From Octopus vulgaris (Eukaryota): a DNA stretch of 64,000 nt. Of the stretch, positions 551-52,947 are shown piece after piece (positions within the stretch are counted from its first letter, which is position 1; every line of letters begins with the position of its first letter). Location: the NCBI GenBank assembly GCA_951406725.2, contig OX597816.1:180482001-180546000 (forward strand). Reading direction: 5' to 3'. Under the pieces are notes generated by a model that saw nothing but the letters and a program-made list of their open reading frames with translations, was not told where the DNA came from and ran no database searches. A program made the translations under genes and the position numbers.

Positions 551-658
551 CCTCCATTTGATGGAGAAGATGAAGAAGAACTGTTCACCTCCATCACAGA
601 CCACAATGTTTCTTACCCCAAGTCTATGTCTCGAGAAGCTGTGTCAATTTGTAAAGGA
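551..658 (+). CDS. PRKCB: Conventional protein kinase C (PRKCA/PRKCB-like), internal kinase-domain exon: [36 protein letters not shown]
   Basis: Acceptor ttttctacag (541-550) and donor gtaagc (659). 108 nt, phase 0/0. The peptide is the typical cPKC kinase C-lobe segment [12 protein letters not shown]...YPKS.S.EAV.ICKG. The symbol is for the closest vertebrate paralog; an invertebrate cPKC is co-orthologous to PRKCA/B/G. Confidence 0.95.
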
Positions 659-18115: not shown

Positions 18116-18960
18116 AGCTATAAATAATAGTATGTAAATTTTGGGTCAAAAACCCCTTTGAGATACAAAATGTCAAAGGCTGCTCATGAGACACAAATCC
18201 AAAGCGATCCTTTAAATTTCATTATCAATATTAGAAACTTTATTTCATGCCAATGAGAATTGTGTTGTTGACATCGTAAGCATTTTATAAACTTTTTCTA
18301 GAGAATAGTGGATCTTAAAGCACATCACATAAAGCTATAAATACTAGCATGTAAATTTATATATATATATATATGGAGCCTGGGGCAGCCCCTGGCTCCC
18401 CAGACCCCGGTCGAACCGTCCAACCCGTGCTAGTGCGGAAAACGGACATTAAACGATGATGATGATGATGATATATATATAAGCAGATGTGTTGTGTGTT
18501 TAAAGAGGTTAGTGGTGGTGACAGGAAGAGCATCCAGCTGTAGAAAAATCTGACTCAATAAAAACCCATGCAAGTATGGAAAAGTGTATGTATGTGTATA
18601 TATATATAAAAACAGATGTACTATATGTACAATAAATTATTAAATATTGTTGAAGCACAGAATTCAAGCTAAATTAAAATCCTACAGCATCAGCACAAGT
18701 TAAGGCTATGACAAGTTGGAATCAGATTTATTAACTCTTTCTTTGATTGTTTTAACCCACCCTTTTCTATCATTAAAAGAACAATTGGCATTTTTGACGG
18801 CATGGGTATGCTATTGTAAACATAATCTACAGTTGTATCCATCTGCAAGATAGGAAGAATGGGATTGATAATAGACTGCTTGAGTTTAAATTATACCCCT
18901 ATTGAGTTTAATCTAAGGATTTATGGAGCAAACAAAGTAGAAAAACGGAGTCGCTCATTG

Positions 18961-25387: not shown

Positions 25388-27120
25388 AGAAAGTATATTG
25401 AAAAGGCATGGAAGAGATACCTAGACGACTGCTTCATAATCTGGACAGAATCTCTAAATACTCTGGAAGAGTTCAATATCCTCCTGAACAACCTACACCC
25501 ATCTCTCCAATTTACAAAGGAGATGAGTAGTACCAAATTACCATTCCTAGATATAATGGTAATTAAAAAAGACACCACCATCACCACAGATATACACTAT
25601 AAACACACATCGATACCTAAATTTTAAGTCGTGCCATCCACCACATACAAAACGTAACATCCCATACTGCCTAGCCAGAAGAATTTGCACCATTGTAGAA
25701 GATGCAAATATCAGTAACAAACGCCTAACAGAACTAAGAGAATTTTTGCTCAAACAAAAATACCCATCTCTACTTATAGAAAATGGCATACAGCGGGCTA
25801 TAAAAATACCCATACAACAACTTAGGACAACCCAAGGAAGAGGAAAACAAGAACAAGTCATACCATTCATAGTGACACACAACCCATGTCACCAGAATAT
25901 CTTCAACATTGCCAAAGCAAACCTACCAATCATTGCCCAAAGTAATGAATTAAAAGACATAATCACGGATCGAGCTATGGTGCTTAGTAAAAGACAGCCT
26001 AAAAACTTGAAAACATTACTAACAAAAGCAAAATTTGACCTTAGCAACAAAGACCAAACATTCACTGTATCTAAATGCAATGATAGCCGATGTGGCTCAT
26101 GCCAATTCATACATACCGGCCAATATATAAACACAAAAACCGGGAAAATATTCACAAACGCGAATATGAACTGCAAAAGCAGAAATTTAATTTACTGCAT
26201 CAAATGCCCAAATTGTGAAGAAATATATGTAGGTCAGACGGGAAACGCACTATCAGAACGCTCACGTGTACACCGGCAACAGATTAGAGACCCAGAGGTC
26301 CGTCAGATACCTTTGAGTAACCACCTAGCAACATGTGGCCGGAAAATGTATATAATATTTCCGTTCTACAAATTACACAGCCCAAGTGAAATCGAGAGGA
26401 AAATCAGAGAAAAGAATTTTATTGATAAATTCGAACCCAAGCTAAATAAGCAATAATAATAATACTTAGAGGTACTACTTCTACTGCTACGACCATGACA
26501 ACAACAATACTAAAGGTGATCAAGATGAAGATAGCAGGAAAATTATCTTATTTAGGGTTAAAAGCTCTATTGTCACCACCATCACCACTAGCAACAATAA
26601 TTAAGGTGCTGACAATGATGATGATGATGACAATTGAAATATAAAAATATAAAAATCTCTGACAAAGGCTATTTACAACATTTCTAAAAATAACCCAATA
26701 ATTGCTGCTTCGGCCAGGGTCAAGATACAGGACTCTTGACCTGTCCAACAAAGCGTGATGCCTAAACCAATCAGCTCAACCAACAAATCAGCTTAAGTAA
26801 TTGAGTGATACTACACACTGATTGGTCAGAATACAGTTTGCAAAACCTAGCACTCTGGAGCCTACCCAGCTGTATTTATAGCACAGAATCAATCATCTCG
26901 CTACAGTCAAAAATTGTGAAGCATGACTGCCACCACTACTACATGAACCCGAAGATTGCAGAATTTAATGCATGAAAGTACTAGTTCAATCAGAATGAAC
27001 ATTTAACATTCTACTATTTTATTTTATTTTATTCTATTATAATACATTATCTTATAATATATCATTATAAGATTGTAAATAAAACGTGAAAATCAGACAA
27101 GGTTGGAATTCCTTTTATTA
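25388..27120 (+). mobile_element. 5'-truncated Penelope-like retroelement (Neptune-type): RT C-terminus, Cys linker and GIY-YIG endonuclease, followed by a 3' UTR/pLTR
   Basis: WKRYLDDCF and LPFLD RT motifs. Frameshift near 25605, then HRYLNFKSCHPPHTKRNIPYCLARRI. Linker CNDSRCGSC...C. GIY-YIG motif NLIYCIKCPNCEEIYVGQT with downstream His residues; ends FEPKLNKQ* at 26456. Embedded between (TA)n tracts. Confidence 0.92.
26944..26988 (+). ncRNA. Minimal type-I hammerhead motif in the Penelope 3' UTR
   Basis: tgaac-CCGAAGA-ttgca-gaatttaa-tgcat-GAAA-gtac-TA-gttca. Stem I tgaac/gttca and palindromic stem III AGTACT. The core has U4->C, so this copy may be impaired. Confidence 0.7.
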
Positions 27121-31681: not shown

Positions 31682-33108
31682 GACACATATATATTGAGAG
31701 TGTGTGTGTGTGTATATATATATTGAGTGTTGAAACAATTCAGTTGGTAGAATATGAATTAAAACTAAAGACTACATAAAGTGAGTGTTGTATAGTTTTT
31801 GAACCCACAGCTGTTAACTACCTTGTCTGCATTATACATTCAATATGCAATAATGTATTATATGTGCACAATTTGCACAATTCCATTTTAATAATTAAGT
31901 TAACTGAAAGTGATAATTATAATAATAATTTTAGAGATAAAAAGAAAAACATATTTGTATTCCATATTAAATCTTGAATTTATTAATGATAAATTCCAAT
32001 TATATTAGTGAGATATTAGCTCAATTAAAATTAATGTGCTCAGAGTTTCTGCATAAAATATATGAAATACAACAAGAATCAGAAAATTATTAAGCCTTGA
32101 TGTATATAACTGTTCAATTTAATGAATACTTTCTGTAATTTTCAAGTAGAGTTTAGTCATGTTTGCTTATTATATTTTTATTTGCAGTTGTTCTTTGATT
32201 ATTGTATTACTCACCATTTATGGCATTGATTTTCTCTTCTTTCTTAGCCTTATCTTAATTGTATTCATAGCTTATCTATGCCCGAGAAGAAAATTACCAA
32301 ATGAGAAAATTAAACAAAACTGAAACTTAGTTCAGTTCCCTTGTGAATTAAAATATTAAAATGTTATTCTTCCAAGTAATGTTTGTTCTGTTGACATCAA
32401 GTTTATCAAACAGTATTGTTCCTTCTCAATCTGTTGAAGTGCAGTGGCTGTGAGGTTAACATGCTAGGCCAATCTACAGACTAAATAATCATGAGTTCAA
32501 ATCTCACAACAGTCATTGTGATTATGTCTCTGAAGAAGGCATTAAACTGTGCTGACTTCAGTCTGCATGGCTTGGAACAATTGTCATCCCTAATCCATAA
32601 TTAAGTGGTTAACAGTAAGAAGGACATCCAACAACATATAAATGTTTGTAAAGCCATCCAATTCATACTCAATTACAACAAAATGACAGAAAAGACAGAA
32701 AAAATATGAAGTTATTAAAAATTGATGAAATTTATCTGAAACAGCTCTGGATACTTCTTATAGTTTTAAAATACTAACACTATTGTTGTTGTTGTTGTTG
32801 TTATTATTATTATTATCATTATGATCATCATCATCATCTTCTTCATCATCATCATCATTATCATCATCATCATCATCATTATTGTTGGTGTTGTTGTCAG
32901 ACAGACATTTGTTTTCTAGAGATCAGTTCAAGTGAGTGGTTTCAGCTGTTGAGAGGAGAAGTAGGTGATGTAAAGCCTAAGCAGTATGTTATCAGCCTAC
33001 ACTGGTGACTTGCAAGTGTAATACTGTCTCACCTCAGAGAGGTACTCACCAAAATAGGTTCTACCTGAGACACCTACTGTACTAATTTGTTATTTTCTGC
33101 CCTTACAG

Positions 33109-33270
33109 CATGACTCGAGGAAAGCTGAAAACTTTGACAAGATGTTCACCTCTAAGGATGTCAAAATGACCCCAACAGACAGTCTAATCATCATGAATAT
33201 TGATGATAGTGCATTCAGGAACTTCTCTTTTGTCAATCCCTTTTTCAGTCAAATACAATCAGACTCTTGA
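33109..33270 (+). CDS. PRKCB: Conventional PKC alternative terminal exon A (alpha/betaII-like V5 tail): HDSRKAENFDKMFTSKDVKMTPTDSLIIMNIDDSAFRNFSFVNPFFSQIQSDS*
   Basis: Branch point TACTAAT (33080-33086), pyrimidine tract and ccttacag acceptor (ends 33108). Phase 0. Intact NFD, F-x3-F-T, turn motif TP and hydrophobic motif FxxFSF. Stop TGA at 33268-33270. Confidence 0.9.
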   Translation, partial: HDSRKAENFDKMFTSKDVKMTPTDSLIIMNIDDSAFRNFSFVNPFFSQIQSDS

Positions 33271-35626
33271 GCGGTAGTATGTATACTTTTGCTTTTTTTC
33301 ATTTCCTTCCCTTCCACAAGAATGCTGCTTGTAACTGTGATGACCATATTTTGTAAAGACTGGTTCCACTTAACAACCAGCCTCATCATAAATGCCTACC
33401 AACTCATAATTAAGACTGCTAGGGTTTGAATGCTTTCTAAAGTGTCATCATTTGATTAGACAAAAATTCAGTTAACTCAATATGCAGTAAATTAACAAGA
33501 CCTATTAACAATCTATGTTCGCTTCATTATTTATCAGTAGGCTTCCATTAACATCAGCCTTATCCTAACTATTCCAGAAGTGCCTATAAAGGTTTTGGAT
33601 ATTGGCTTTTCTCGCCAAGCTAAAATGTAACAACAAAAGTCTCTTATTCTGTCCAATCAAGGAATCATATTTTGTTCAATACAATTTGTAAATCAGTTTC
33701 ATTTCTTTTCTTAAATATTCCTATTCCTCCATTTTATTAAAATAATGAATTTAAACGTAATGTGCACCCTTATTAAAATCATGAAGACAAGTTAAAATAT
33801 TATCTATTTCATTATAACTTGTCCATTGGTTGAGGGTGTTATGGTAATGCTACTGCAGATTTTGATGATAAAGCAGGAGATAGAGACCCATAGTATCATC
33901 TCCTGCTCACACGTCTGATGGAAAATCTTAATGGCAAATAACTCATCAGTACTCATGATTATATGATAATGATGGTGGTGGGTGCCATTTCCTTTCTGTG
34001 GTCGTGGTTGACTGACATCTGGCAACAATTGTTTACAATTCACTGAAAACACCTCAGCTCTTTCAGAATACACCAGCTGACAGATGACACTCTTGTTGAA
34101 AGAGGGATATGTCAATACTGTAGGGATGTAGGAGATAAAGAAGCTGAGTTTAATGTTGCAAATTTCATTGGTGTTGTTTCTTAAATCACCTTAGTTCACA
34201 CACTATAATCAATTTAATAGTTTCCATATTGTGGCTGACAAGGTATTTAACTCCAGGCTTCACACACTGTACTTAATGCATTGTAGTTAACACATACTCT
34301 TTCACATATTGATTTCTGGAGCAATTATATTTTATCTTTTCTCTTATTAATTATTTATATCCATTATATAGTAAGGTGATGTTACTTTATTTAATCTTCG
34401 TTTTCTAATTATTTGTTATCAATCAGAACAAGAAGGCTGAAGAGATAAATTATTTGATTTTTCTGTTCATGAATTATTAGTTCAGATCCATCAGTGACAT
34501 TTCATTTTGTTCTGCTGGAATATTTATTCTTTGTTGACTCAGTCTGTCTAACTGTCAACAATAAGTATCAGATTTAATATGGTTTAGCTACAAACAAAAG
34601 TCTCTCAATTGGTTCGCCTAGCTAATTGTTAGCAAAAGGTTAATACCAGATTAGTCTGGTCCAGTTCTTGTCTGCCTCGCAACTTGATCCAGAATTCATA
34701 TTTTTGTTTATGCATCTGATATATTTAACAGTCTATTCCACATGAAATTTATCATATAGAGACAACCACCACCACATGAGTATCTTTCTCACATGTGAGT
34801 GCGTCTCACCATTATCCATTTAGACCTTATACTGCTTCTTTCTTTCCAGGTTAGCCATAAAATTATTTTCTCCCAACAATACACAAACATTTAAGTCTAT
34901 AGACACCATTTCTACTCATGTTAGCATGGAATGAATTGATGCAAAATAGTTCTGAAGCCTCATATAGGCTGGGTGCTTAAATATGTTGGCCTGTTGCTTT
35001 ATATAGCTTTCCTTCAATTGTGAATTTTGATTTTTCCCTAGTATATCTCTGCCAGTCCTCACAGTTGTGTGACTGCCACTCACTGAAATCTTTAATTGCA
35101 TATCAATCATATGAACCCAGTTTTTCCATGCAAATATAAACCTTTCCACTTGCAGAACCAGATAATGTTAACTAGACTATGTCCAGACCTTTAAGACGTT
35201 GCTAAGTATTGGACCAATTGCTTTCAAAGGTCTTCTTGAATAGAACTGATCAAAGCTACCCAATAACAGTAGGAATAACAACAATAACCACAATATCAAA
35301 AGCAATCAAAGCAAGAACAGAACCACAACCATTACCATAATGAACAAAGTTAACAGACAAAATCATTAAATCCAACATTTGATTGAAACTGAACCCTTTA
35401 TATTCTTGAAAAGGTATCTGTAAGACATGGATTGTGGATTTTCTTCTCAAATACAACAACAGAATGAAAATACATTAACAAGTAGGAACTAATTAAATGC
35501 TTAATCAGATTGCAGTAATTAATTCATTCACCTATTTGTTATTTAGCAATGAATGTTCTCAACTCTTGTATTGATATCCATACTCATACATACACACCAA
35601 CATCTTTCATATATATATATATATAT

Positions 35627-37400
35627 AGGGACCAGCTATCCGAATTAACAGTACCTTGGTAGATAAAACAATTAAGGGTATGAAGACAGCAAATGCTCAC
35701 TGCCAATCAGGAATCACCGCAGAGATGCTCAAAATATCTGGCAGTGTCGGCTATAGCTTAGTCACCCGTATAGTCAACCAGGTGATACATGAAGAAGTTA
35801 TACCCAATGACTGGTGTAGCAGCATAATAGTCAACTGCTACAAAGGTAAAGGTGACAATTACAGAGGTATTAAGTTGTTGGATCAGGTAATGGAAGTCAT
35901 GGAGAGGGTTATAGCCCAACTAATTAGGGTGAGAGTTAGCCAGATGCAGTTTGGGTTCATGCCAGGGAAAAGTACCACTGATGCTATATTTCTGGCAAGA
36001 TAGCTGCAGGAGAAATACCTAGCCAAAGATAAGTCCCTCTACCTGGCTTTCGTTGACATGGAGAAAGACTTTGACAGATAAGCCGATCCCTTATCTGGTG
36101 GCCAATGAGGAAACTAGAGAGAGCTGTGCAAGCCATGTACAGGGATGCTGTCAGTAAGGTGAGGGTTGGCAATGAGTACAGGGAAGAATTTCGGGTAGGG
36201 TTAGGGGTCCACCAAGGATCAGTGCTCAGCCCCCTCTTATTCATCATAATCCTCCAGGCAATAACAGAGGAATTCAAGACAGGATGCCCCTGGGAGCTCC
36301 TCTATGCTCAATCTGTAGAAAAGGCGTAGGTAGAAACTCCATAAGATATACCCAGTGTAAGCTATGGACACATAAAAGGTACAGCAATACCAAAGGAAGG
36401 CTAACTGTGAAGATAGCTTTTGTATGTGGCAAATGCTCAGGAGCAATAAAACTGAAAATGTGCAGAGAACAGCTTCCGTCTCATTCCAGGGAGAAAAACT
36501 ACAAGTAGTTGATAGCTTCCATTATCTAGGTGACCAAGTCAGTAGCAGGAGTGGATGCTCTGTAGCTGCTAGAATAAGAATAGCCTGGGCAAAGTTCAGA
36601 GAGCTCCTACCTCTGCTGGTGACAAAGGGCCTCTCGCTCAGAGTAAAAGGCAGATTGTATGACGCATGTGTATGAACAGCCATGCTACATGGCAGTGAAA
36701 CATGGGTCATGGCTGCTGAGGACATGCGTAAGCTCATGAGGAATGAAGCCAGTATACTCCGCTGGATGTGTAATGTCAGTGTGCATACACAACAGAGTGT
36801 AAGTGCCTTGAGAGAAAAGCTGGACCTAAGAAGCATCAGATTTGGTGTGGAAGAGAGATGACTGCACTGGTATGGTCATGTGGTAAGAATAGATGAAGAT
36901 AGCTGTGTGAAAAAGTGTCACACCCTAGCAGTTGAGGGAACCTGTGGAAGAGGAAGACCCGGGATGAGGTGGGAAAGCACGATCTTCAAACATTGGGCCT
37001 CACCGAGGCAATGACTAGTGACTGAGACCTTTGGAGGTATACTGTGCTTGAGAAGACCTAGCAAACTAAGTGAGACCCTAACCCATGGCCTATGCCAGTG
37101 GTATATAACCAGCCCACTTATGAGTACCCTTCATTCATTGGACAATAAGCTTTGTTTGCAAAGACCTGTTGAGGGAAGTGAAATCAAAATCACTGACATG
37201 GCCAATGACAGTACCACCTGATTGGTGCCAGTGGAATGTTAAAAGCACCATCCAAGCATGCCAGGGCCGCTGATTGGCTCCCGTGCTGGTGGCACGTAAA
37301 AAGCACCAGTCAAGCATGATCGTTGCCAGCATCACCTAACTGGCACCTGTGCTGGTGGCAAGTGAAAAACAACATTTGAGTGTGGTCGTTGCCAGTGTCA
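35627..37400 (+). mobile_element. Degenerate RTE LINE (copy 2)
   Basis: ORF pieces 35656-36003, 36105-36329 and 36424-36675 match the copy 1 RT, with stops, frameshifts and an internal deletion after WELLYA. The 3' UTR repeat units run to about 37400. Confidence 0.92.
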
Positions 37401-40400
37401 GATTTCCAGATGCAGTGTTTGTAACTCTTCAGCCATCATCAATGAAAAATATCAAAGAGAGGTAATTCTGAGCAGGTTTAAACTGATAGCTTTAGCTAAA
37501 ACAGTCAGCAACATTGACTGAGTTACATTATTAGAGCATCAGGTCAGAAGAAATTCAGCCATGTTTAGGCATAAGTGAACTTCATGTTAGTTAAAATATG
37601 TTTGTGACTGTGTCACTATGTAGATAAACCCTGTGGTCAAAACACAGGGCTGCTATTTCTATATAAAACTGTGAATAGCTTGTATAGTTTCAAATAGTTA
37701 TTGCTTGTGCAGTTTCAACTAGTTACTGCCTTCTCATTTAGAGTATCTACTCACGTTCAAAGTGACTCACAGCTTACTTTGAAAAAATGCAGTGAGTTAG
37801 AAGCATCAATTTTGCTCATTTACACATTAGTACATTTCCTGACAAAGTTGTTTAATGGCTAAAGTACTGAGACAGTAGTGTGTGGTTAAAGTTTGAATAA
37901 GGTTACTTACCTGTGTTTAAGAAGCGTACATTCAATAAGTTTACATACCTATGTTTAAGTCTGTGTACGTACGGCAGACCAATTTAAGTTTTATACTATA
38001 AATGCTATTTTCTCCCTGATGAATCAGTAAAATGTGTCACCAACCTCTTTTGAACCAGTAAAAATTGCTGAGACTAGTTCAGACCAATCTTTTTCTAATT
38101 GCACAAAGAAACTCATGTTGTTTACCTAATCGACATAGTCTGGATGCAACAGAGTGTATATTTCATAGAGTGTTGTTGACACTGTGTTGATGGATAGCAT
38201 TAACCCTCAATGGCTAATGCCATCTTAGTCTTAGGTTTAAGATTCAGGCTGACTCTCTCCTAAATTGAAATGCCATCTACCGAAAGATTTAGTCTCAGCT
38301 ATGTTGACTAGAGGAACAGGAAAAGAAGTATTTTGCTCAAAAAACACAACATACCACTTGTGAGAAAACCAAAACTACAACTTCATGATCATGAATCCAC
38401 ACCCTAGCCACTAGATGGCACACCTTCTCATAATGCTAACTTACTATAAATAAGTACTGTGTTTGGGTGTTTTCTTCTGTAAGTAGAAACAGAACTTTAT
38501 AACACACTATTGTTTAATACGTTTACAGTGCTGACCTTCAGTTCCCCCCCCACCCTGCAAACCAGCCTCTTAAAAGTCAATTCCATTTTTTTTTTTTTTA
38601 CCTGTCTTCATTCCATGAGTTACTATGGTGTTGTACCTTGTCTCCAGTAATAGATTTTCCTGATAAATCATATACAGTTGCACACTTTCCTCTCTCTCTA
38701 TATATATATTAGTCACGATATATCAGTTATGATCTCCGGGTATGTAGAAAGAGAAAAATTACATAATATGCTAAAATATTTCAATGTCAACACACTACAA
38801 ATTTACAACTCTGCTATACATTCTAGCTGACTCTGAAATACAAATCTATCTTTGCAAGCTTTGCTACATTTTATAGTTATTTTTGTGGCAATGTTTAAAT
38901 AGGATACAGCAACATTATGTTTAGAGGCTTCTTTACACTTTATGGTTATGTCACAGTAATGGCAGCTTCTAACTCATCCTCTCCACCAATTTTTGTTTAT
39001 TAAACATTTTATTCTTGCATGTTCTTACTCTTTGTTTTTTTTTTCTTTCTTTTTCTTTTATTTAAACCATGTATTTTGATTTATCCATTTTTTCACCCTA
39101 TTTTACACTTTATTTGCATTTCTTTCTGAAATTCAAATTGTTGCTTTTATTTTCTTTCTGATTTCTTCATTTTAATTTCTGGGTTTCTTTTTTTCTCTTT
39201 TATTTCTCTCTCGTTTCACTACTTCTTATACTTCCCATTCTACTCACCTTGTTTCCAAATTTCCTCACTTTTTTCAGTTTTTCCCCACAAAACTATTTAC
39301 ATCCACCCACCTTTAATTCTCTCAACCTGAATGCATTACACCAAACATGAGTGTCTTCACCAATTTCAACCACTTAATCTTTTCTCATCTTGCAACTCAT
39401 CTTTAGAAGAAATTCTCAATAGCTCTCTCATGAATGATAGTGATTTAGTTTCAGTTGGTTTTGATATATTAATTATTAGTGATAGAAGTATTAGTACCAA
39501 AATGCAATCTTTATATCCAACTTAATGTGGATGTCATGTTTGAAGACCAAATAATGTGTTATTAGCCTTGAAAGAATCTCATGTAGGTGCTTAGAGCATA
39601 AAAGCACACATACCTAGATTGTAGCAGATGAGAATCATTCATTAGGGATGCCCATCTGCTATGATTTATGTCAGTGCTTTTATATACCATGCACCTATAT
39701 GAGAGGGTCTCTCAAAGCTAATAATGCATCCAGGTTCAGTTGGATATAAAGATTTATATATGTACAGGCATATGAACAGAGGGGGTAGATAGACATCATT
39801 AAAGCAAACGTATGGCTGTAATGTTACAATGGAATATCCAGCTAATGCTATGTATATATGCACACTTGACACTGAGTGAGTCACTTCACTTAAGTATAAA
39901 TAGATACTGGTGTTCTTCTGTATGCTGAGGAAGTACTTTTTCTATAATACTAATGTTGATATTCATGAGCTTATTGTATACACTGTTAGGTGCAGTACAA
40001 CTCAATGAAAAAGAGGAAAAGAGACGACTGAGAGCATCAATAAGTGAAGAAAGACAGTCGTGATAGTCGTAAGGGTTTCAGTAGTTCACAGGGCTAATCC
40101 AAAGATTTGAAATGCAATGTTTAATGCTCACTGTGTACTTTCTAAAGAATTTTACCCTGTTTCAAGACATAAGAACTGGAAGCAAAACCATTTCAGAATG
40201 CCCTTAGCATTTGTAATATACTGAGAATAGGGTAAGGTAGCTATTAAAAACACAGGTTAACACATGTCCTAGAAAAATTTTGTTTTGAAGAGGTGAGGTG
40301 ATATAAGTTTAGGGTGAACTGTTCAGGTCATATGGACAACGTAGCTAATACAATAAAACGACAAAAAAAGCCATGCTTCAGAAGAAAAATTATCGTGTTT

Positions 40401-40804
40401 AGGGAGACTTGGTAATTAATAAATGACTTTTCTGTGGACATGGCTTGATATTTTGATAACCAATTGACAGTGACCATCTTCCGTTAGAAGCACTATGTGT
40501 TATAGGAAACAGTTAGGAAATATTTAATATCTGTTTCTAGTTAGTTTCCTCTATTTGTGCATGTGCTCTGAAGCCATGTACTTATGCAATAATTCTATTT
40601 TAACATCATACATAAGTTACTTTGTACTAAATGGATTGTTCTATCCTCTGACCTAGGGCTCCATAACAACTAAACAAGCTGACAAACTCTTTTCTTTTAT
40701 CACTTGACATTCATTTACAGATCTATGTATGACCACCTAGGCAGAACTCTATACTGATACTTTCTTTTTATTTTTTATCCCTTATTTACCTCTAATCTCT
40801 TCTA

Positions 40805-41005
40805 CTCTAGGCACAAGGCCTGAAATTTGGGGGGAGGGGGCCCAGTCAATTAGATCGTCCTCAGTACACAGCTGGTACTTAATTTATCAACCTCGAAAGG
40901 ATGAAAGGCAAAGTCAACCTCGGCAGGATTTGAACTCAGAACGTAAAGACAGACGAAATATTGCTAAGCATTTCACCTGACATGCTGACATTTCTGCCAG
41001 CCTCT
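40805..41005 (-). mobile_element. tRNA-derived SINE (family of 2860-3090)
   Basis: gaaaggatgaaaggcaaagtcaacctcggcaggatttgaactc is the reverse complement of the SINE core and B box. Confidence 0.75.
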
Positions 41006-41661
41006 CTCTGCCTTATAAAAGAAATGTCATATATTGAAATAGTTTCAGTTCAATATTAACAACTGGATACTAATTGGTCTTGCTATCAGAGTGTGAAAAT
41101 CTCAGCTCAATGTCGTGGCTCATTTGATCATATAAAGAGAAGCTCAATGAGAACCAACATATTTTCTTGCATTAGCCATAAGTAGAATTGACCTGAATAC
41201 TACGCAACAATGAAACACTCAACAGTTTTACCATGCTGAAACAGAATTTCACATCAATGGTGAAACATAGAATTTACCATCCACAACTGTGGTCTGAATT
41301 CTGTACCAATAGGATTTGATACATTGACCTTTCAAGTGATCGCCCAGTATCTACTTGACTCACTTAGTTCAGAAAATATTAAATAAATAGAAATAGTGTA
41401 GAAGCATTTATCTAATTAAATACACCTCATTTCATGAAGAAGGGTGAATCAGTTGATTGTGAATGAAAGAAGGCTCTCATTCTAAGTGATTAGTTCATTA
41501 GACCTAATTAGACAGACATTTAAGCTACTCAATCATAAGCAGTGATAATATCAAAATTAATCATAATTAATGAAATTTTTGCCATAAGTGTTCTGTGACA
41601 GAAACCTTATGTAAGACGTAACCCAGAAGTTTATCAGTTGTTTCTATGTAGAGAACATGAG

Positions 41662-42003
41662 GTAACTACCATATAGTGTGGAGAGCCAAAGATAGAACTA
41701 CCATATAACTTATTGACTATAATACAACTGCCATATAGTGTGGTGACTGTCACTGAACTGTCATATTGTTTGATGACTAAGATAAAAATGCCATAGTGTA
41801 TCATGGTGTGGAGATTATGAGAGAATTACCATGAATTAATGAGGACAATGATAGAATTGTCATAGTGTGAAGTCTATGATAAAACTACCCTATTGTGTGA
41901 AGACCATAGTAGATCTAACACATATGTATAGTGTAGTGACTATTATAGAACTATCACAGAGTATATAGTGACCCTGGTAGAACGACCATAGCATGGTGAT
42001 CAT
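41662..42003. repeat. Degenerate tandem repeat of about 30 bp, about 11 units
   Basis: Recurring agaactaccatatagtgtgg(a/t)gacta-like unit. Confidence 0.6.
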
Positions 42004-45000
42004 ATTATAAGGGATATTTTACATACAGGAGGACCCAGTAGTTAGTATATTTTAAAATGTCAAACAGTATGTAGACAGAGAATCAAAGAAATTTATATTT
42101 ACCAGAAGTATGTAGTTGTGGACTTCCTCAGTGAAAAGGAGAATTATAACGGACAGGGATGTTGTGTTTGATGGTTGAGAAGCTATCAAGATTATTTAGT
42201 TGTCAAGGGAAACAGTGGGTTGAGTAGGTTTCTGAAGTATAAGAGTGATGTTAATTAAAGAATGTAATGTAGTATGTGTAGTGAAATAAGAACAGTAGAG
42301 TAGTTGTTAAGATGGAAGCAAAGATGACAATAAAGATGTATAAGAGATGGTTGATGCACTTCTGACAGACATGGGATTGAATAGGATTCACTCACCTAAA
42401 TGATGAACCAGGACTTGTTTAAACAAACTGTTAATGAAAATCCTAACACCTATTCCAGAAATGCTTTTTAAACAATTAATAAATGTTCTAATTTTTTCTC
42501 CTCTTTAGCGTGACTACCTTTGTGACTACCATTTGTATCTTCTCACTTCTCACCTCTCACTAATGTCTGTCTGATAACTGAAAGTAATTTCTTTGTTGTA
42601 TTTGTTGACACACAGACAGATTGTGTAATTCATTTAGTTTACTATTCACATTAATGTAAAAAGATAATCAGTAATTTCATTTTGTAGTTATTTTATTTTC
42701 CTAAAAAAAAATTATCTCAATCAATCATTCCAATCGACTTTCTTATTAAGATAAAGTCTGTCACAAGTGTTATACTTAAGTGTATTGTATTTGTTCGTAG
42801 TATGTGTTATATTTGTATAGTGTATATTATGATTATGCATAATGTATTTATATTTGTGGTTATGATGTTTAGTATAAGTATATCTAGCATGTATCTTATA
42901 ATTATGTGTAGTGGGTGTTATTTTTATGTACAACACCAATTAGAGAGAATAGCAAACTTGGTATTTACTAGGAGGATTGTTGCCATTAAAAATAACACAA
43001 TTTTGTATTCTAAGTGATAGGTAGAGTTGTTTATGTAAGTAACAGTTAATTGTCCAATACACACGCAGACATATATGTATGTGTGTGTGTATCAATGGCA
43101 ATGGTCTTCTGCATTTAGTTATTTTTGTGATATTTAATGATACTGTAATATTTTCATGTATATTTCCAGGGGTCTTACTTATGTGCAGCATGTATTATGC
43201 ATGCATCACCTCCATGCTATAGAATTATTATGGTCATGAAAATGTTGCTATAGCATGGAATTCTGTAAAAGGAAACATGGTTTCCCAGTGAGTCCGATCT
43301 ACAGTGACTTCCTTGTAACATAGAAATCAATTGTGAAATTCCATGTTAAGGCAAGATTTTCAGGATTACAATGCTTCCGCAATTCAAGGGGTACCAATAA
43401 TTATGTATAGTGTTTGTTATTGTTATATATATTGTGTATTGTTTATGTGTGTATTATGTGTTGCAGTCACGTCCACTGTACAAATGTGTTGTCTATGTTA
43501 TGGGTATGTGTAGCAATTATGAAAACATTAACATGCCTGTAATGTATGTTGTAATGTATATCTAATTGTTGATACCTATGTATTTTTAATTGGTAATACC
43601 AGTGCACTATATAGTAAATTATTACCATCCTTGTAATGTAAGTTGAATTATTAATACCAATGACAGCATCAGCCTTCTTAGTTTCTATTTCCAATCATAA
43701 TTCGGTTTATATGGTTAAGACATAAACTCTACTGTTGCAATGACCACCAAAAGCAGCTGCAGTTTTATTTATGAGAAAAAAAAACCCACAAATTCTGTTA
43801 ACTGACTGATTTCATGTAACTGAGATCCATGTCTATAACTTCCTGTCGCAGCAATGCTGTCAATCTTGCTGCTCACTGCATCCCTTGTGTTGGCTATTCA
43901 CCACCATTCTTTATAGAAGCAGTCAAAGAGTCAACTGTCGGAATTGTCTTCTTTTCCATTTCTTTGTTTCCTTCCCTCTTTGAATAAATCATATTTCTGA
44001 ATTTTTTTTTTTTTTTTTTTCATCAAACCACTTTTTCTTCAAAATTCTCTAGAATTCATAAGCTGAAAGCTTCACTGATTTGATTGAAAGGTGTTTTATA
44101 ATGTTCTACATTTTAGCTTCCATTGATGTTTTCATAGATTATATTTTAGTGAACTTACGAGTGGTTGGTTACAATAGCATCAGTCAATGTATGTGCAAAG
44201 AGATAATTGCACTGACATGGACATTGGCTGTGAATGGAGGTTGATTTAGAACAAAAGTGCAACGGTATGTTGACAGAGGGATATACAGTGAATTCCAAGT
44301 AGAAGAAGACATAGGAGAAAGTGGTGAGTTCAGATCACAGAATGACATGGCTTACATACAAGATGATATAAGAATAAAACTTGTGATTTGTTGTACAGCA
44401 GAGCCATCCGACCCATCCCTGCTTAGAAACATTGACATTAAAACAGTAAGGATGAAATAAACAGTAGTAATCTCTTAGTTCTCTACCAAGTGTGATCATG
44501 AATTGTTTTCCGTGGAAGCAACTGAAACAGTATTAAGTTAAAATAGACATCTGTGTATCATAATAAATGTATATACACCATAGAAAGGCATACTACTGTG
44601 CTTTTTTGTTTAAGAGAAAACATCTTCATAGACATGTCATGCTAAAAACTCAGTGTCTAGTGAAGCAAAATGAACATTGCCACAGCAGTGACTCATATAA
44701 ACATTAGATACATTTCACCCTTCATGAGGCTTGTACCCGTTTGTTACTTCTTTGAATGAAATTTGTGCTTTGATATATAAGAAACAGTGAATAACATATT
44801 CACTGATGTTGCAGAATGCTTCCTGGGCAGTAAAAATATTCAGTCAATGCAACTGAAATAGAATTAAGATTAAATAGGCATCTGTGTATCACACTAAATG
44901 TATATGCCCGATAGAAAGGCATTTTGCTGTGGATTTTGTCTGAGTGAAAAATCTCTTCATAGATAATTTATGTTAAAAATGTAATGCATATATATATATC

Positions 45001-45431
45001 AAAGCAAAATGAACACAGTCATTATATGAAATGGCAGCTGCTATTAACAGTATCAGAAACATCTCATCTGATTACAAGGCTTGTTTGTTGTTATTCCATG
45101 TTGCTTCTGATCTCTTCCACCACCAATTCTGTTTACTATTGTCTTCAGTATACATTTCTTCTTTCTTTTTCTTTCTTTTTTTTTTTTTGCCTGATATATC
45201 TATGAATTGGAAGCAATAGTTCATCTTCAATCAATGTTTTATTGATATTTTCAGTTGATCTACCTATACCCCATTTATTTCAGACTATACCATCCACTGG
45301 CTGATATTCTAAGACTGCAATTTTATTTGTAATATTTTCCATTGTTCTTCTGCATTTTTCACTAATAGCTAGCTTCAATTCATTAAAATTCTTACTTTCA
45401 TGTAACAAAACAAGCTTTTTTTTTAATTCTT

Positions 45432-45505
<74 letters not shown>

Positions 45506-45514
45506 CTTTCTTCT

Positions 45515-46980
45515 TAAGGCACTAGACTTGAAATTTTAGGGAAGGGGGGCTAGTGGATTACAACAACCCCCAGTATTTCACTGGTCCTTAATCAATCCCG
45601 AAAGGATAAAAGGCAAAGCCAACCTTAGTGGAATTTGAACTCAGAAAATAAAGACACATGAAATGCTGCTAAGCATTTTGCCTGGCGTGCTAACAATTGT
45701 GCCATCTCACCACCTTAATAATGATAATAATAATCCTACTTACTATAGGCACAAGGTCTAAAAGTTTGGTGGGAGGGCCTGATTACAATGACCTCAAATG
45801 GTCCTTATTTCATCGACCCCCAAACCCAAAAATGATGAAAGAATAATAAGGCAAGCTGGCAGAGACAATAACACAACAGGCATAATGCTTAGCAGCATCT
45901 TGTCCATCTTTACACTCTGAATTCAAGTTCCACTGAGGGCAACTTTGCCTTTCATCCTTTCGGGGTCAAAGAGATACATACCAGTTGAGAACTAGAGTCA
46001 ATGTAATTGACCAGCACCCCAAAACCATAATAAAAATTTCAGGCCTTGTGTCTATAGTAGAAAGACTTATTATTATTATTAGGAGAGCCAGCAGAATCAT
46101 TAATGGACAAAATGTCTGTGATATTTCTTCCAACTCATTAAGCTCCAAGTTCAAATTTCACCAACGTCAGCTTTGCCCTTCAGCCTTTCAGGCTCAGTGA
46201 AATAAATAGTAATCAAGTACTAGGACCAAAGGTATTGGTTAACCCCTCCCCTCAAAATTGCTGGCTTTGTGCCAAAATTAGAATTATTATCATCGTTATT
46301 ATTATTATGCTTATGCTTTGCAGAAATTTTGTCCATTTTTATGTTCTGAGCTCAAATTCCGCTGAGGTCAACTTCACCTTTCATCCTATCAGGGTCAATG
46401 AAATAAGTTCCAGTTGAGTACCAGGGTCAATTTAGCAATTATCCCCCTCCCTTTCCCTATATTCCTATAGTAGGAAGGATTCTTCTTCTTCTTGTTATTA
46501 TTATTAAAAACTCAGCAAGCTGGCAGAATTGTTAGCAAACTAGACAAAGTGCTCAGCAGCATTTCACCCCTCTTTACATTCTGAGTTCAAATTCTGCTGA
46601 GGTTGACTTTGCCTTTCATCCTTTAGGGGGGTCAATAAAACTTTCCCACTACCCAGAAATTGCTAATCTTATGCCATTTTTTTTAAACCATTGTTATTAT
46701 TATTTAGGCCTTGTGCCTATAAGGAAAAGATTTATTATTATTATTAGGACGGCAAGCTTTCAGAACCATTAGCAGGCCAGGCAAAAGGCTTAGTGGCATT
46801 TTGCCTGGCCTGCTACTGTTTCATGCATCATTATGTTCTGAGTTAAAATTCTGCCGAGGTCAACTTTGCCTTACATCCTTTCGAAGTCAATAAACTAAGT
46901 ACCAGTGAAACACTGGGGTCAATGTAATCAACTAGTCCCCACCCCAAAATTTCAGGCCTTGTGCCTTTAGTAGAAATAAT
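45515..46980. mobile_element. Cluster of about 6-7 SINE copies separated by (TTA)n tracts, mixed orientation
   Basis: Repeated caagctggcagaa...gagttcaaattc...caactttgcctttcatcc...aatttcaggccttgtgccta units. The first copies are on -, the later ones on +. Confidence 0.8.
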
Positions 46981-46987
46981 AATAATA

Positions 46988-47023
<36 letters not shown>

Positions 47024-47199
47024 TAATAATCTGCTTGTTTGTTAAAATCACTTGCCAAGACACACCCAGCATCATAGGGCGAGTGAAGGATAAGAAATGT
47101 TGCAGTATGACTGAAAGCTTGGAGAGGGGAAGTGGCAGGGGCAGTAGCAAAATTGATTCATGTAATACAACACACACGTTTAAATGGATATTATCATTA

Positions 47200-48250
47200 T
47201 TATTATTAAAGATGTTTCACAACATCCAATATCGGGATGTTGTTGATTGAAGATATTGTGTCTTATGGGGATTTGTACTGTCTGTCAAGTCACCACGAGG
47301 ACTTCAGACAATATGCGCTTTCAAGTAATGATGATTTTTGCAATACACCCAGATTGTAGGCTATTTCTAAAGCTTTCAGATGTTTTTTCAGGTTGAGTAG
47401 TATTGACCCCAATGCTCCAATGACAATAGGGACAACCTTTACATTTGACTATTGTAGCTGCCTCATCTTAGCGATCTCAATTCTCTGGTCTCCATATTTA
47501 TCAATCTTTTCTCTTTCTTTCACGATGATATGTTGATCTCCTGGCACTGCCAGATTAGGCACTCACTCTTGTTTGTCCCTTCTAAAGGTTATTGTATCTG
47601 GTCTTCAGTGCTCCTTGTCTGGAAGTCAAAGTCCCTGAGGATTTTTGCCTTCCCCTTTACATCCATTACCTTTTCCAGTGTATGTCGGTACCAAGCACCT
47701 ATTACCTCGTATCCATACCTCCAGCATGGTAGCCAGTGAAGGTTTTGGGCTACCTTGTCATGTCTGCACTTGTATTCTTTCTGCACAAGACTCTCACAAG
47801 CACTAACAAAGTGAGTCACGCTTTCGACCCTCTTCCTACACATTCTGCAACGGTTCATTGCACTTGTGTGATATGTATCCCTTCTCACTGAGTTGGTATT
47901 CAATGCCTGGTCCTGGGCAGCAATGATTAGGCTTTCAGTCTTCTTCTTTTAGGTCTACCTTGCTGAGCCACCTCTATGATGCTTCCTGGTCTTTTAAGCT
48001 GTTAATTTCACGGTGGAACTGACCATGTAATTCCATGCGGAATAAGGTTTCTTCTTTCTCATTGGTTGTTCATGATCGGAATTCATTAGCAGTCTCAAGT
48101 CCATTTTTGGTAAATTATTCTGCATTAGCAGCATACTGTAGCAGGTTTTGTTTGTTGTTCACCAAATATTCTGCCATATTTCTTCTTTTACTGTTGATGC
48201 ACTCCCGTATGCTAATCAGCCCATGTCCACCTTTACCTTCTTCATGTAAA
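47200..48250 (-). mobile_element. Degenerate R4/Dong-like (restriction-like endonuclease) non-LTR retrotransposon, 3' part
   Basis: IAAQDQALNTN, CRMC...HFVSAC zinc knuckle, RHDKVA, DF.FQT, AVPGD..I..KE.EK, KYGD and VVPIVIGALG motifs. The 3' end abuts a TAA-type repeat. Confidence 0.8.
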
Positions 48251-48535
48251 GCCTATGGACAATCGCCTTAGAGTGGAGAGCAGTGAGCTGACAGAATCAT
48301 CAGAATCATCAGAATAAACACTTTGTGACATTAGTCCTCATTTTTTTCATTCTCATTTCAAATTGGTTTTTCTTTTTTTTTCTTTTTGACAATGATAAAA
48401 TAATTACCTGTTGATCTCAGGGGTCAATGTAATCAACTAACCCTTTCCCCACAAAATTTCAAGTCTTGTGCCTATAACAGAAAGGATTATTATTGTTATT
48501 ATTATTCTTATTATTATTATTATATTGATGATGAC

Positions 48536-48720
48536 GAATTCTGAAAATTCTTCTGTATGGCCAACAAGTGGAGGGATATCGTGACAAAGGAAGAACTCTC
48601 CTTAGGGATGAGGATAAGTCGAAGCAAACACTAAACCTCTACAGCTTAATCTGACATCTTAAGGAAGTCATTGCCTAGATCGATCTACATGGCATAAAAT
48701 GGGTGACGATGCATCCAAAC
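48536..48720 (+). mobile_element. RTE/BovB-like ORF C-terminal fragment
   Basis: Translates RILKILLYGQQVEGYRDKGRTLLRDEDK, resembling the RTE C-terminal motif R.PK.LLYG.L..G.R..GRP.LR.KD. Confidence 0.5.
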
Positions 48721-48726
48721 AATTTG

Positions 48727-51192
48727 AGGGCCAGTCAGGTGGTACTGGCGATGGCCACACTTAAATGGTGTTTTTTATGTGCCACCTGCACAGGAGCCAG
48801 TCAAGCGGCGCTGGCAATGACCTTGCTTGAATGTGGTTTTTCATGTGCCAGTAAGGCGACGCTGGTAATGATCATGCTCGAATGGTGCTTTTCATGTGCT
48901 ACCGGCATGGGAGCCAGTCAGTGGCCCCGGCAACGATCATGCTCAGATGCTGCTTTTAACGTTCCACTGTCACGGGTGCCAGTTAGGCGGTGCTGTCATT
49001 GGCCATGTCAGCGAATTTGATTTTGATTGTGATTTCACTTGCCTCAACTGGTCTTCGCTAGCAACACATAAGTAGGCTGGTTACACTGCTGTCATAGGCC
49101 ATGGGTTATGGTCTAACTTGGCTTGCCAGGTCTTCTCAAGCACAGCATATCTCCAAAGGTCTCAGTCACTAGTCATTGCTTCAGTAAGGTCCAATGTTCG
49201 AAGGTTGTGCTGCACCACCTCATCCAAGGTCTTCCTAGGTCTGCCTCTTCCACAGATTCTCTCAACTGCTAGAGTATGACACTTTTTCACACACCTGTCC
49301 TCATCCATTCGCACCACATGACCTTACCAGCACAGTCGTCTCTCTTCCACACCACATCTGATGCTTCTTAGGTCCAGCTTTTCTCTCAAGGTACTTACAC
49401 TCTGTCAAGTATGAGCACTGACATTACACATCCAGCGGAGTATACTGGCTTCATTCTTTGCAAGCTTACGCATGTCCTCAGCAGTCACGGCCCATGTTTC
49501 ACTGCCATGTAGCATGGCTGTTCATACACATGCATCATACAGTCTACCTTTTGCTCTGAGTGAGAGGCCCTTTGTCACCAGCAGAGGTAGGAGCTCTCTG
49601 AACTTTGCCCAGGTTATTCTTATTCTAGCAGCTACCCATTCAGAGCATCCACTCCTGCTACTGACTTGGTCACCTAGGTAATGGAAGCTGTCAACTACTT
49701 GTAGTTTTTCTCCCTAGAATATGACAGAAGTCGTTCTCTGCACATTTCCAATGTTTATTGCTCCCGAGCATCTGCCACATACAAAAACTATCTTCCCAGT
49801 TAGCCTTCCTTTGATATTGCTGCACCTCCTATGTGTCCATAGCTTACACTGGGTACATCTTATAGAGTTTCTACCTATGTCCTTTCTACAGATCGAGCAG
49901 GGCCATCTACCTGAAGGGATTTGTGGTTTGTCTGCCTTCCTACTTATTAAGACTTTGGTTTTAGCTAGGTTGATTCTAATCCTTGCTTCCTCACCTGAAG
50001 CTTCTCCTCTAGTTCTGATAGTGACTCAGCAATAAGAGTAAGGTCATCAGCATAGAGGAGCTCCCAGGGGCATCCTGTCTTGAATTCCTCTGTTATTGCC
50101 TGGAGGACTGTGATAAATAGGAGGGGGCTGAGGACTGAGCCTTGGTGGACCCCTACCTCTACCCTGAATTCTTCACTGTACTCGTTGCCAACCCTCACCT
50201 TACTAACAGCATCCCTGTACATGGCTTGAACAGCTCTCACTAACCATTCATCTATCCCTAGTTTCCTCATTGACCACCAGATAAGGGATCAGCTTATCTG
50301 TCAAAGGCTTTCTCTATGTCAGCGAAAGCTAGGTAGAGGGGTTATCTGTAGCTAGGTATTTCTACTGCAGCTGCCTTACTAGAAATATAGCATCAATAGT
50401 GCTTTTCCCTGGCACAAACCCAAACTGCATCTCATCTAGACTGACCCGCTCCCTAATTAGGTGGGCTTCAACCCTCTCTGAGACATTCATTACTTTATCC
50501 AATAGCTTGATACCTCTGTAATTATTTGAATCTAGGGCATCACCTTTACCTTTGTAACAGTTGACTATTATGCTGCTACACCAGTCATTGGGTATGACTC
50601 CTTTGTGTATCACCTGGTTGACTATATGGGTGACTAGGCTATAGCCAACACTGCCAGATATTTTGAGCATCTCTGCAGTGATTCTTGATGGGCTGGGAGC
50701 GTTCCCTGTCTTCATACCCTTAATTGCTTTATCTACCAAGGCACTGTCAATTCGGATAGCTGGTCCTTCTGTTGGGTCAGCATTTGGCAGGCTCTCTTTC
50801 TCCCATTCCTTCTCTTTATTTAGCAACCCTTCATAGTGGTGTCTCCATACTTCTCTTTTTGCAGCCTCATTTAATGCAAGTGAACCATCATCCATGCGGA
50901 CACATCTCTCCTATGACATCACAATTCTCTCTCACACACTGTCTCGCAGTACTAAATACCTCAAGTCTTTGGTCCGCACGGTGCAGAATATTGGCAAATT
51001 TTTTTTCTTATCTGCTTTTCCCCTGGCTAAATAAACCTGTCTCCTCGCATCCCTTTCGGCAGTCAGATATGATTCCCTGCTACCACCGTTCTTCCAGTCC
51101 TTCGAAGCCTGTTTCTTTTCTCTAATAGCCCTGTCAACAACATTGTTCCACCGCCACATTACCTTCGGTCGAGAAGGGATTTTGCACCATCC
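48727..51192 (-). mobile_element. Degenerate RTE LINE (copy 3; extends furthest 5')
   Basis: ORF pieces 50932-51159, 50362-50895 and 49965-50270 carry the RT motifs, with frameshifts. The 3' UTR repeat units lie at 48727-49010. Confidence 0.92.
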
Positions 51193-52467
51193 ATATTATT
51201 ATTAAATTGGCAAAGCCAGAGTTCTTCTCAAAATGTATGTTCTCATCTTACGAATTCTTGGCTTCTACTTGGGAGAAGGATTATTGCCTCAACTTTCCAT
51301 GAATGTTTTACAAATCTCAGGATTCCTATCTATGTGAGAAATAGTTGTTGTTGATAACTTGACAATACCATTTTTTACCACTAACCACTCAATTTTGAAA
51401 TAGAAGTGGAACCTGGTTTATTATTCAATTAACTAAACTAGGTTAAGCAGAGTTATATACCTTGCTTAGTTGTACAATCTAAACTAATAAAATGCCATAT
51501 AATCAATTGTCCAATACTTTAAACTCAGCCAGTTTTCCCCATCCATATTTATGAATTACACTGTGTAACACAATTTTTGTCCTTGGTAACAATTGTTATC
51601 TCCTATTTACTTCGCCCTAGAAAGTATGGAAAATGGCTATTTCCTTTAAATTTTGCTTTTCTTACCTTCATTCAAATGCCAAAGAATCCCTCTCAACACA
51701 CGGCTATGATGCTCCTCCACTACTCTTGTTCATGATCAGAGATGCACATATTGTCAGCCACTAAGGGACATGCTCAAATAGTTTAAGGTCAAGCAACTGA
51801 CAAGCAAATCTGTGGTATTGAGCAGAATATTTGCTATAACAATATTTCTGCTTCAGCAATTCAGCACTGAATCTGTCTGAAGTGTTATGAAAAATAGGTC
51901 AGTTTCAAAGCATTGATGTCCGTGTCACAAAAGCAATGTTTCAAGGGAATAGTTATCATTTCCTTTAATTTCTAAATAAAAGCAAGTGGGAAATAACACA
52001 GACAAAAAAACAAAAAAAATTTTTCTTGCACAGTGTTATAGCTTGCTGATTGTTGAGAAAAACCCAAGGCTCTTTACGTCAACAACTCACTATATAAAGT
52101 CCCATACACTTCTTTGCAGATGTTGGCATTTCCTATTCTTCCCTCACTGCTGATAGCTTTGATTGTCTGTCTTCAATCCCTGATGTTCTCTTAAATACTT
52201 TATGTCATTTAGTTATATCACATCATCAACCCAAATCTTGCCACATTAAAGCTTTACTTTTTTCTTTTTACCTATCCTTGTGAAGCTGATAAAATAAATA
52301 TCAATGATACACAGGTTTGAATCAATAAATCACAGCTCTCCTACAAATTCTAAGTTTAAATTCCTATTGTTGCTCAGCTACTCTTTTGTTTTTATACATA
52401 TAGCTCCAACCTTAAGCCTTATTATTGTTTTCATTCTCAATTCTTTTATTCACTTTTCTTTTAACAG

Positions 52468-52620
52468 AAAAGCAAAAAAGATGTCAGCAATTTCGACCGT
52501 GAATTCACCAGTGAAGCTCCAAAGTTGACACCAACAGACAAACTGTTCATTATGAATTTAGACCAGACTGAATTTGCTGGATTCTCCTACATCAATCCTG
52601 AATTTGTTATCTCTGTTTGA
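52468..52620 (+). CDS. PRKCB: Conventional PKC alternative terminal exon B (betaI-like V5 tail): KSKKDVSNFDREFTSEAPKLTPTDKLFIMNLDQTEFAGFSYINPEFVISV*
   Basis: Long pyrimidine tract and ttaacag acceptor (ends 52467). Phase 0. LTPTDKLFIMNLDQ and EFAGFSY.NPEFVI.V match the PKC-betaI tail as I recall it. Stop TGA at 52618-52620. Confidence 0.95.
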   Translation, partial: KSKKDVSNFDREFTSEAPKLTPTDKLFIMNLDQTEFAGFSYINPEFVISV

Positions 52621-52947
52621 AGATATTAGCTGTTGTACCCCCAGACCATGGCCAATGAGGTGCCAATCTTTATTTGGATCAGCTTGTGTTGCTAAATCTG
52701 GCACCATGGCTGCATAGGCTGAAATTCTCTCCACTCTCATTTTTGGCTAAAGTTGGTCAACCAGAATGTCTTTTTAACTATGTTTCTGTGTGTGTGTGTG
52801 TGTGTGTGGTGTATATATGTATATATATATATATACATGTATATGTATGTAAATAAACACATACACAAAACATATAGGCACAACCACTCACACACATATA
52901 ATAAATGTATGTTATATAAAGCATATGTATATAAAGATGTATGTGTG

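Follow-up and report, generated by a model that had tools for sequence, protein, structure and literature searches.

Is the choice between betaII and betaI tails at the C-terminus of protein kinase C (PKC), as made by the vertebrate gene PRKCB, an invention of vertebrates? The question is raised by a stretch of 64,000 nucleotides from Octopus vulgaris (contig OX597816.1, positions 180,482,001 to 180,546,000 of the forward strand), which we call the window and in whose own numbering positions are given below. The window contains the 3' end of a conventional PKC gene, the only one found in this Octopus genome, with two homologous exons for the V5 tail that probably go back to a single duplication predating the protostome-deuterostome split. 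The proximal of these, exon A, is likely orthologous to the betaII exon of PRKCB, and the distal one, exon B, to its betaI exon.

Two V5 tail exons follow one constitutive junction

The gene spans about 383 kb (180.15-180.53 Mb of genome contig G000:C3), along which the exons of protein P0001 map in order. P0001 has the C1-C1-C2-kinase-V5 layout of a conventional PKC (cPKC), with matches to PF00130, PF00168, PF00069 and PF00433. The features placed in the window are as follows.

551..658, + strand: constitutive kinase-domain exon (PPFDGE...ICKG), 108 nt, phase 0, with AG/GT ends; placed by tblastn with P0001
1418..1558, + strand: last constitutive exon; ends in PPYKPKI and matches P0001 residues 559-605 with 100% identity; donor ATA/GTGAGT at 1559
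33109..33276, + strand: exon A, proximal V5 tail of probable betaII/alpha/gamma type, 168 nt, made up of 53 codons, TGA (33268-33270) and 6 nt; most likely a stop-bearing cassette
33277..33282, + strand: 5' splice donor GTATGT closing exon A, from the sequence and from a sequencing-run contig that ends at 33276
52468..52620, + strand: coding part of exon B, distal V5 tail of betaI type, 50 codons and TGA; true last exon
52621..52809, + strand: start of the 3' untranslated region (UTR) in exon B, from a contig of run X1, ending in a (TG)n repeat

Exons A and B lie 31.55 kb and 50.91 kb from the constitutive donor. Each is preceded by a pyrimidine tract and CAG, and both are in phase 0, so that two homologous V5 exons follow the same junction in the same phase, as in PRKCB. 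Both tails carry NFD, F-x3-F-T, a TP turn and an FxxFS[FY] hydrophobic motif. They are not chance open frames, since both match Pfam Pkinase_C (38.0 bits for A and 58.6 bits for B, against a cut-off of 20.9), they match each other with an E value of 7e-12 where the next match in the window has 0.07, and the hydrophobic-motif pattern occurs at only these two places in the six frames of the window. A first-pass annotation, made from the letters alone, had described the donor at 1559, the exon starts at 33109 and 52468, phase 0, good acceptors and complete V5 tails, and all of this is confirmed in the sequence and by Pfam.

No third V5 exon of the gene was found in the window or among the four matches to tail B in the genome; two of the four sit on other contigs and, from their sequence and position in the tree, are read as the tails of other PKC classes. 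Isoform X1 of Octopus sinensis (P0003) has an insert of 3 residues before PPFDGE, that is, just before position 551, and no micro-exon for it (AG-9 nt-GT) was seen in positions 1-560 of the window.

Orthology of the two tails

Tail B is plainly betaI-like. It scores 72.9 bits against betaI, as opposed to 48.3 against alpha and 43.9 against betaII, and is 74% identical to betaI but 52-53% identical to alpha and betaII, which points to orthology of exon B with the betaI exon and bears out the betaI signature first noticed in it. The orthology of exon A with betaII is likely, and here it is the tree that argues for it and not the pairwise score. In a tree of 41 ingroup rows, from which 14 outgroup and 2 unassigned rows were left out, proximal tails together with betaII, alpha and gamma are split from distal tails together with betaI with support of 98/97. 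The same split was obtained with all 57 rows (98/98), and under a mixture model with the outgroup after 6 long rows had been dropped (97/94). Vertebrates are represented by 8 proteins (10 rows) from the 120 listed in one search, the others coming from a 50%-representatives search. Among the metagenome loci described below, L005, L008 and L009 were unused, and there is no distal row from L007 (unused for B) or from L005, L010 and L011 (which gave none).

Approximately unbiased (AU) tests reject arthropod-only (p=0.026) and crinoid-only (p=0.034) groupings, as well as a grouping of all deuterostome tails (p=0.013). The residues before NFD follow the same division, with A-E in the proximal tails and mostly D-x-S/N/G in the distal and outgroup tails; glutamate immediately precedes NFD in 17/17 invertebrate A rows and 8/9 betaII/alpha/gamma rows, compared with 0/15 distal and 0/14 outgroup rows. 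The trees take the form that the first-pass annotation had predicted, with A beside betaII, alpha and gamma and B beside betaI, and they support its suggestion of a switch that arose before protostomes and deuterostomes diverged. The outgroup roots among the distal tails, suggesting that the betaI type is the older form.

Several observations weigh against this reading of exon A. By pairwise score tail A is about equally near betaI (41.8 bits), alpha (40.9) and betaII (36.2), with 48, 50 and 46% identity respectively, and its middle part, TPTD.L.IMN, is betaI-like, so that the alpha/betaII signature originally ascribed to it is upheld by the tree grouping and not by overall similarity. The trees are built on 45 columns only, and in the 57-row tree one atypical-PKC outgroup row joined the proximal side, as did two unassigned rows. 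When the 7 columns before NFD are removed, support is 88/93 and a vertebrate-only origin of betaII, alpha and gamma survives (p=0.18); the link between A and betaII leans on one short motif just before NFD. The count of 17/17 is itself partly selected, because the invertebrate A rows were found by similarity to octopus A, whereas the vertebrate rows were not. Finally, given the slow evolution of the distal tails, among which the outgroup roots, the fast proximal tails could attract each other.

These observations bear on a history with two origins, in which the proximal/distal pair of invertebrates is old, while in vertebrates a betaI-like exon was duplicated separately to give the betaII/alpha/gamma tail, which converged on AENFD. 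Such a history is rather unlikely in our view. The equal nearness of octopus A to betaI and betaII fits it, as do the survival of the vertebrate clade without columns 1-7 and the emphasis of PMC9741552 on convergence in events of this kind, where Pkc53E is filed as 'different region, convergent'; nevertheless, when all 45 columns are used a grouping of all vertebrate tails is rejected (p=0.021), and junction, phase, order and stop-cassette design are all alike. Moreover, the crinoid A row is nearest the vertebrate betaII/alpha/gamma group, although weakly supported there, and a starfish pair is already accepted as orthologous in PMC8373072.

Exon A as a stop-bearing cassette

Both exons had been described at first as terminal. 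Exon A, however, has a donor (GTA/GTATGT at 33277) 6 nt past its stop, and it is most likely an internal 168-nt cassette rather than a terminal exon. Contigs of four of the 24 sequencing runs found (X1, X3, X4 and X7) were aligned to positions 32950-52780; the RNA status of the runs is guessed, none being on record as RNA. In run X7 a contig of 226 nt with a depth of 77 aligns without differences over 33109-33276 only. A de Bruijn simulation (k=31) of the skip and inclusion forms together yields a bubble of exactly 226 nt (30+168+28), with 28 letters after exon A because the ends of the shared exon and of exon A have two letters in common. The orientation of the contig offsets, 30 before and 28 after, is our own reading, and it also fits the run X1 contig. 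With exon A simulated as a terminal exon there is read-through beyond the donor (622 nt, up to where the simulated stretch stops), and a simulated intron-only merge gives 228 nt instead of the observed 226.

As the contig stops at the GT donor and has the simulated length, a stop-bearing cassette is the most likely arrangement; use of the donor is seen in the contig end, and from the exact match of 226 nt we infer that its partner is exon B. The skip form is found in run X1, where a contig of 2225 nt joins about 1883 upstream letters (1815 coding letters expected, plus UTR) to position 52468. Both splice forms are thus expressed, skipping in run X1 and inclusion in run X7, in so far as these different runs, with different organism codes, are RNA.

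Here too there are points on the other side. The joining of A to B in the run X7 contig comes from length arithmetic and not from junction letters. Cover of exon B is low in runs X7 and X4 (5.5 and 1.8), and contigs may have been filtered out unseen. Run X7 is coded as another organism than X1 and X3, and its RNA status, as said, is a guess. In the four spliced metagenome contigs described below, the spacer between A and B ends in CAG, so that it might represent an internal acceptor and not a junction made by splicing.

With the same orthology, exon A might instead serve mainly as a last exon proper, polyadenylated at a site of its own, which we think unlikely. ATTAAA occurs at 33736 and 33772, downstream of the exon A stop, and one contig of run X1 spans 32977-33703, but this contig also covers the upstream intron and has an intron-level depth of 5.8, while the deep contig of run X7 ends precisely where the GT donor begins. 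In two arthropod-like genomic loci, L011 and L012, the 150 nt after the A stop contain no donor-like site. Terminal and cassette modes can coexist.

Tails of the two types in other animals

A profile built from 7 A-type tails picked out 20 of 124 candidate proteins, and the named carriers are octopods, a chiton, a clam, two limpets, a snail and the crinoid Anneissia. RefSeq proteins XP_029634365.1 and XP_052822467.1 (Octopus sinensis and O. bimaculoides) end in a tail with 100% identity to tail A, the Argonauta tail is 98% identical to it, and unnamed contigs of 2-3 kb from other animals encode the spliced A form. Both tails are annotated as isoforms in the chiton Liolophura (X3/X4) and the limpet Patella (X1/X2), and the gene model of the crinoid Anneissia has A and then B, in that order. 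The flatworm Macrostomum has one record for each tail type, from records not tied to one gene. No cnidarian, sponge, amphioxus, tunicate or lamprey cPKC occurs among the 15 named rows of 150 listed in the 50%-representatives search, and the named rows retrieved include no proximal tail from Aplysia, Drosophila or C. elegans, in word-limited searches that do not amount to absence.

Among 315 candidate stretches, a metagenome scan identified 9 loci. Four of the nine are spliced contigs in which the shared exon is followed by A, its stop, 13-19 nt and then B; two, of genomic DNA, show C, A and B in that order, and the remaining three have A without B. Of the six loci with both tails, the three used in the tree (L006, L012 and L013) have distal tails that cluster with those of insects (98/95), and we therefore call these loci arthropod-like. 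Positions 3782-3955 of L010 belong to a cPKC locus of divergent sequence; its tail is of A type, a GTAAGT donor follows 23 nt past the stop, and a distal exon was not found within the 2 kb available. L005 has a donor-like site 53 nt past the A stop.

This distribution bears on whether exon A arose from exon B by a duplication confined to molluscs or cephalopods, the outcome that the first-pass annotation had named as fatal to its proposal. The two exons have TPTD.L.IMN in common and are 47% identical over the core, but AU tests reject the union of A and B both within octopus (p=1e-5) and within molluscs (p=1e-4), and A-type tails occur in the crinoid, the flatworm and the arthropod-like loci, which leaves such a duplication very improbable. 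It is scarcely credible that exon A is a relic, dead or not expressed: no exon-A-bounded contig is among those listed for run X1 or X3, but there is one in run X7, the tail is conserved across the octopods named above, and other animals encode the spliced form.

Two features of the retrieved proteins touch the same junction. Chiton proteins P0008 and P0015 and isoform X1 of fish PKC alpha (P0179) have an insert of 14-15 residues exactly at the junction before the proximal tail; the chiton insert of 14 residues has no match in the octopus intron (best score 22 of 85). In P0185, P0186, P0257, P0302 and P0022 (models from sturgeon, cobra, bamboo shark and crinoid) part of a proximal tail is fused to a distal tail, probably because the exon pair misled the annotation.

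Proposed mechanism

We propose that skipping from the last shared exon to exon B would give a betaI-type kinase. When exon A (168 nt) is included, its stop would end the protein with a betaII/alpha-type tail, and exon A would then most likely be spliced on to exon B, which would become 3' UTR. Nonsense-mediated decay obeys a 50-55 nt rule, and as the stop of exon A lies 6 nt before the last junction, the mRNA with exon A would be expected to escape it. The F-x3-F-T, turn and hydrophobic motifs are phosphorylation motifs needed for maturation, and since both tails keep them, a mature and active kinase is predicted from each. By analogy with mammalian betaI and betaII, the difference between the tails would lie chiefly in the binding and localisation that depend on them, not in on/off activity, and the octopus isoforms may likewise be regulated by tissue and differ in function.

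On balance we favour the view that the full device, a betaII-type stop cassette spliced to a betaI-type last exon, worked already in the protostome-deuterostome ancestor. The betaI tail would be the older one, vertebrate PKC alpha and gamma would have fixed the betaII-type tail, and molluscs would make a second, unstudied isoform of betaII/alpha type.

Other content of the long intron and its surroundings

The long intron contains a LINE-type reverse transcriptase open reading frame at 16978-18117 on the minus strand (RVT_1, 112.5 bits), and fragments resembling a LINE frame lie at 35629-36003 (+) and 50362-50910 (-), with no Pfam match. An open frame of 297 residues at 25563-26456 (+) has a GIY-YIG domain (27.9 bits) and is likely part of a Penelope-type element. 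Positions 15701-16531 look repetitive and are open in three frames. Another protein kinase has exons at G000:C3:180596535-180608053 (-), about 60 kb downstream of exon B and on the opposite strand.

Comparison with known systems

The great age of the switch and octopus tail A itself were already known. The first-pass annotation offered a pre-vertebrate age as possibly new, but the PRKCB event was dated to Bilateria by Martinez Gomez et al. (2021, PMC8373072), 'in multiple species', with the crown-of-thorns starfish as the named example, and a 2022 paper (PMC9741552) repeats 'Bilateria' for PRKCB while listing the Pkc53E and pkc-2 events under convergence. It is the same event as ours, although the named example is a deuterostome and no mollusc pair is named in the parts covered, where PRKCB is also not among the Drosophila-shared events of PMC8373072. 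Tail A is likewise present in RefSeq among the calcium-dependent PKC isoforms of molluscs (O. sinensis X1/X2, O. bimaculoides X1, Liolophura X3/X4, Patella X1/X2), which are automatic models whose names say nothing on betaII/betaI orthology. A 1997 paper on C. elegans pkc-2 reportedly described two C-terminal forms. No paper on the mollusc exon pair was found in literature searches, which reached few subscription papers. What is added here is the evidence for orthology in protostomes and for the same cassette mechanism; no new mechanism is revealed.

Mollusc cPKC is a model in studies of learning, and work on it with single-tail reagents may overlook a second isoform; invertebrates could in turn serve to study the purpose of having two tails. 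A Bilaterian dating that PMC8373072 and PMC9741552, in the parts covered, illustrate by a deuterostome alone is firmed up with protostome evidence.

The octopus pair resembles that of vertebrate PRKCB in its junction after PP[YF]KPK, in phase, in having the betaII-type exon upstream, in the stop-bearing cassette and in tails that group by position. In the mouse, inclusion of the betaII exon brings a stop and the last exon becomes untranslated (PMC3537621), and in human the betaII exon lies upstream of the betaI exon, about 5 kb apart (PMC8373072), compared with about 19 kb in octopus. The exon-specific conserved residues of the PRKCB event cluster in one helix (PMC8373072), and control of betaII inclusion by insulin and SRSF5 is a feature of mammalian PRKCB (PMC12318918). 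Unlike PRKCB betaII, octopus exon A has kept the betaI-like TPTD.L.IMN middle. The tails of vertebrate PRKCA and PRKCG group with exon A and betaII, and the 3 alpha/gamma rows used show the proximal type of tail only. PRKCB would then be the vertebrate paralogue that has retained an ancestral switch, and not its inventor.

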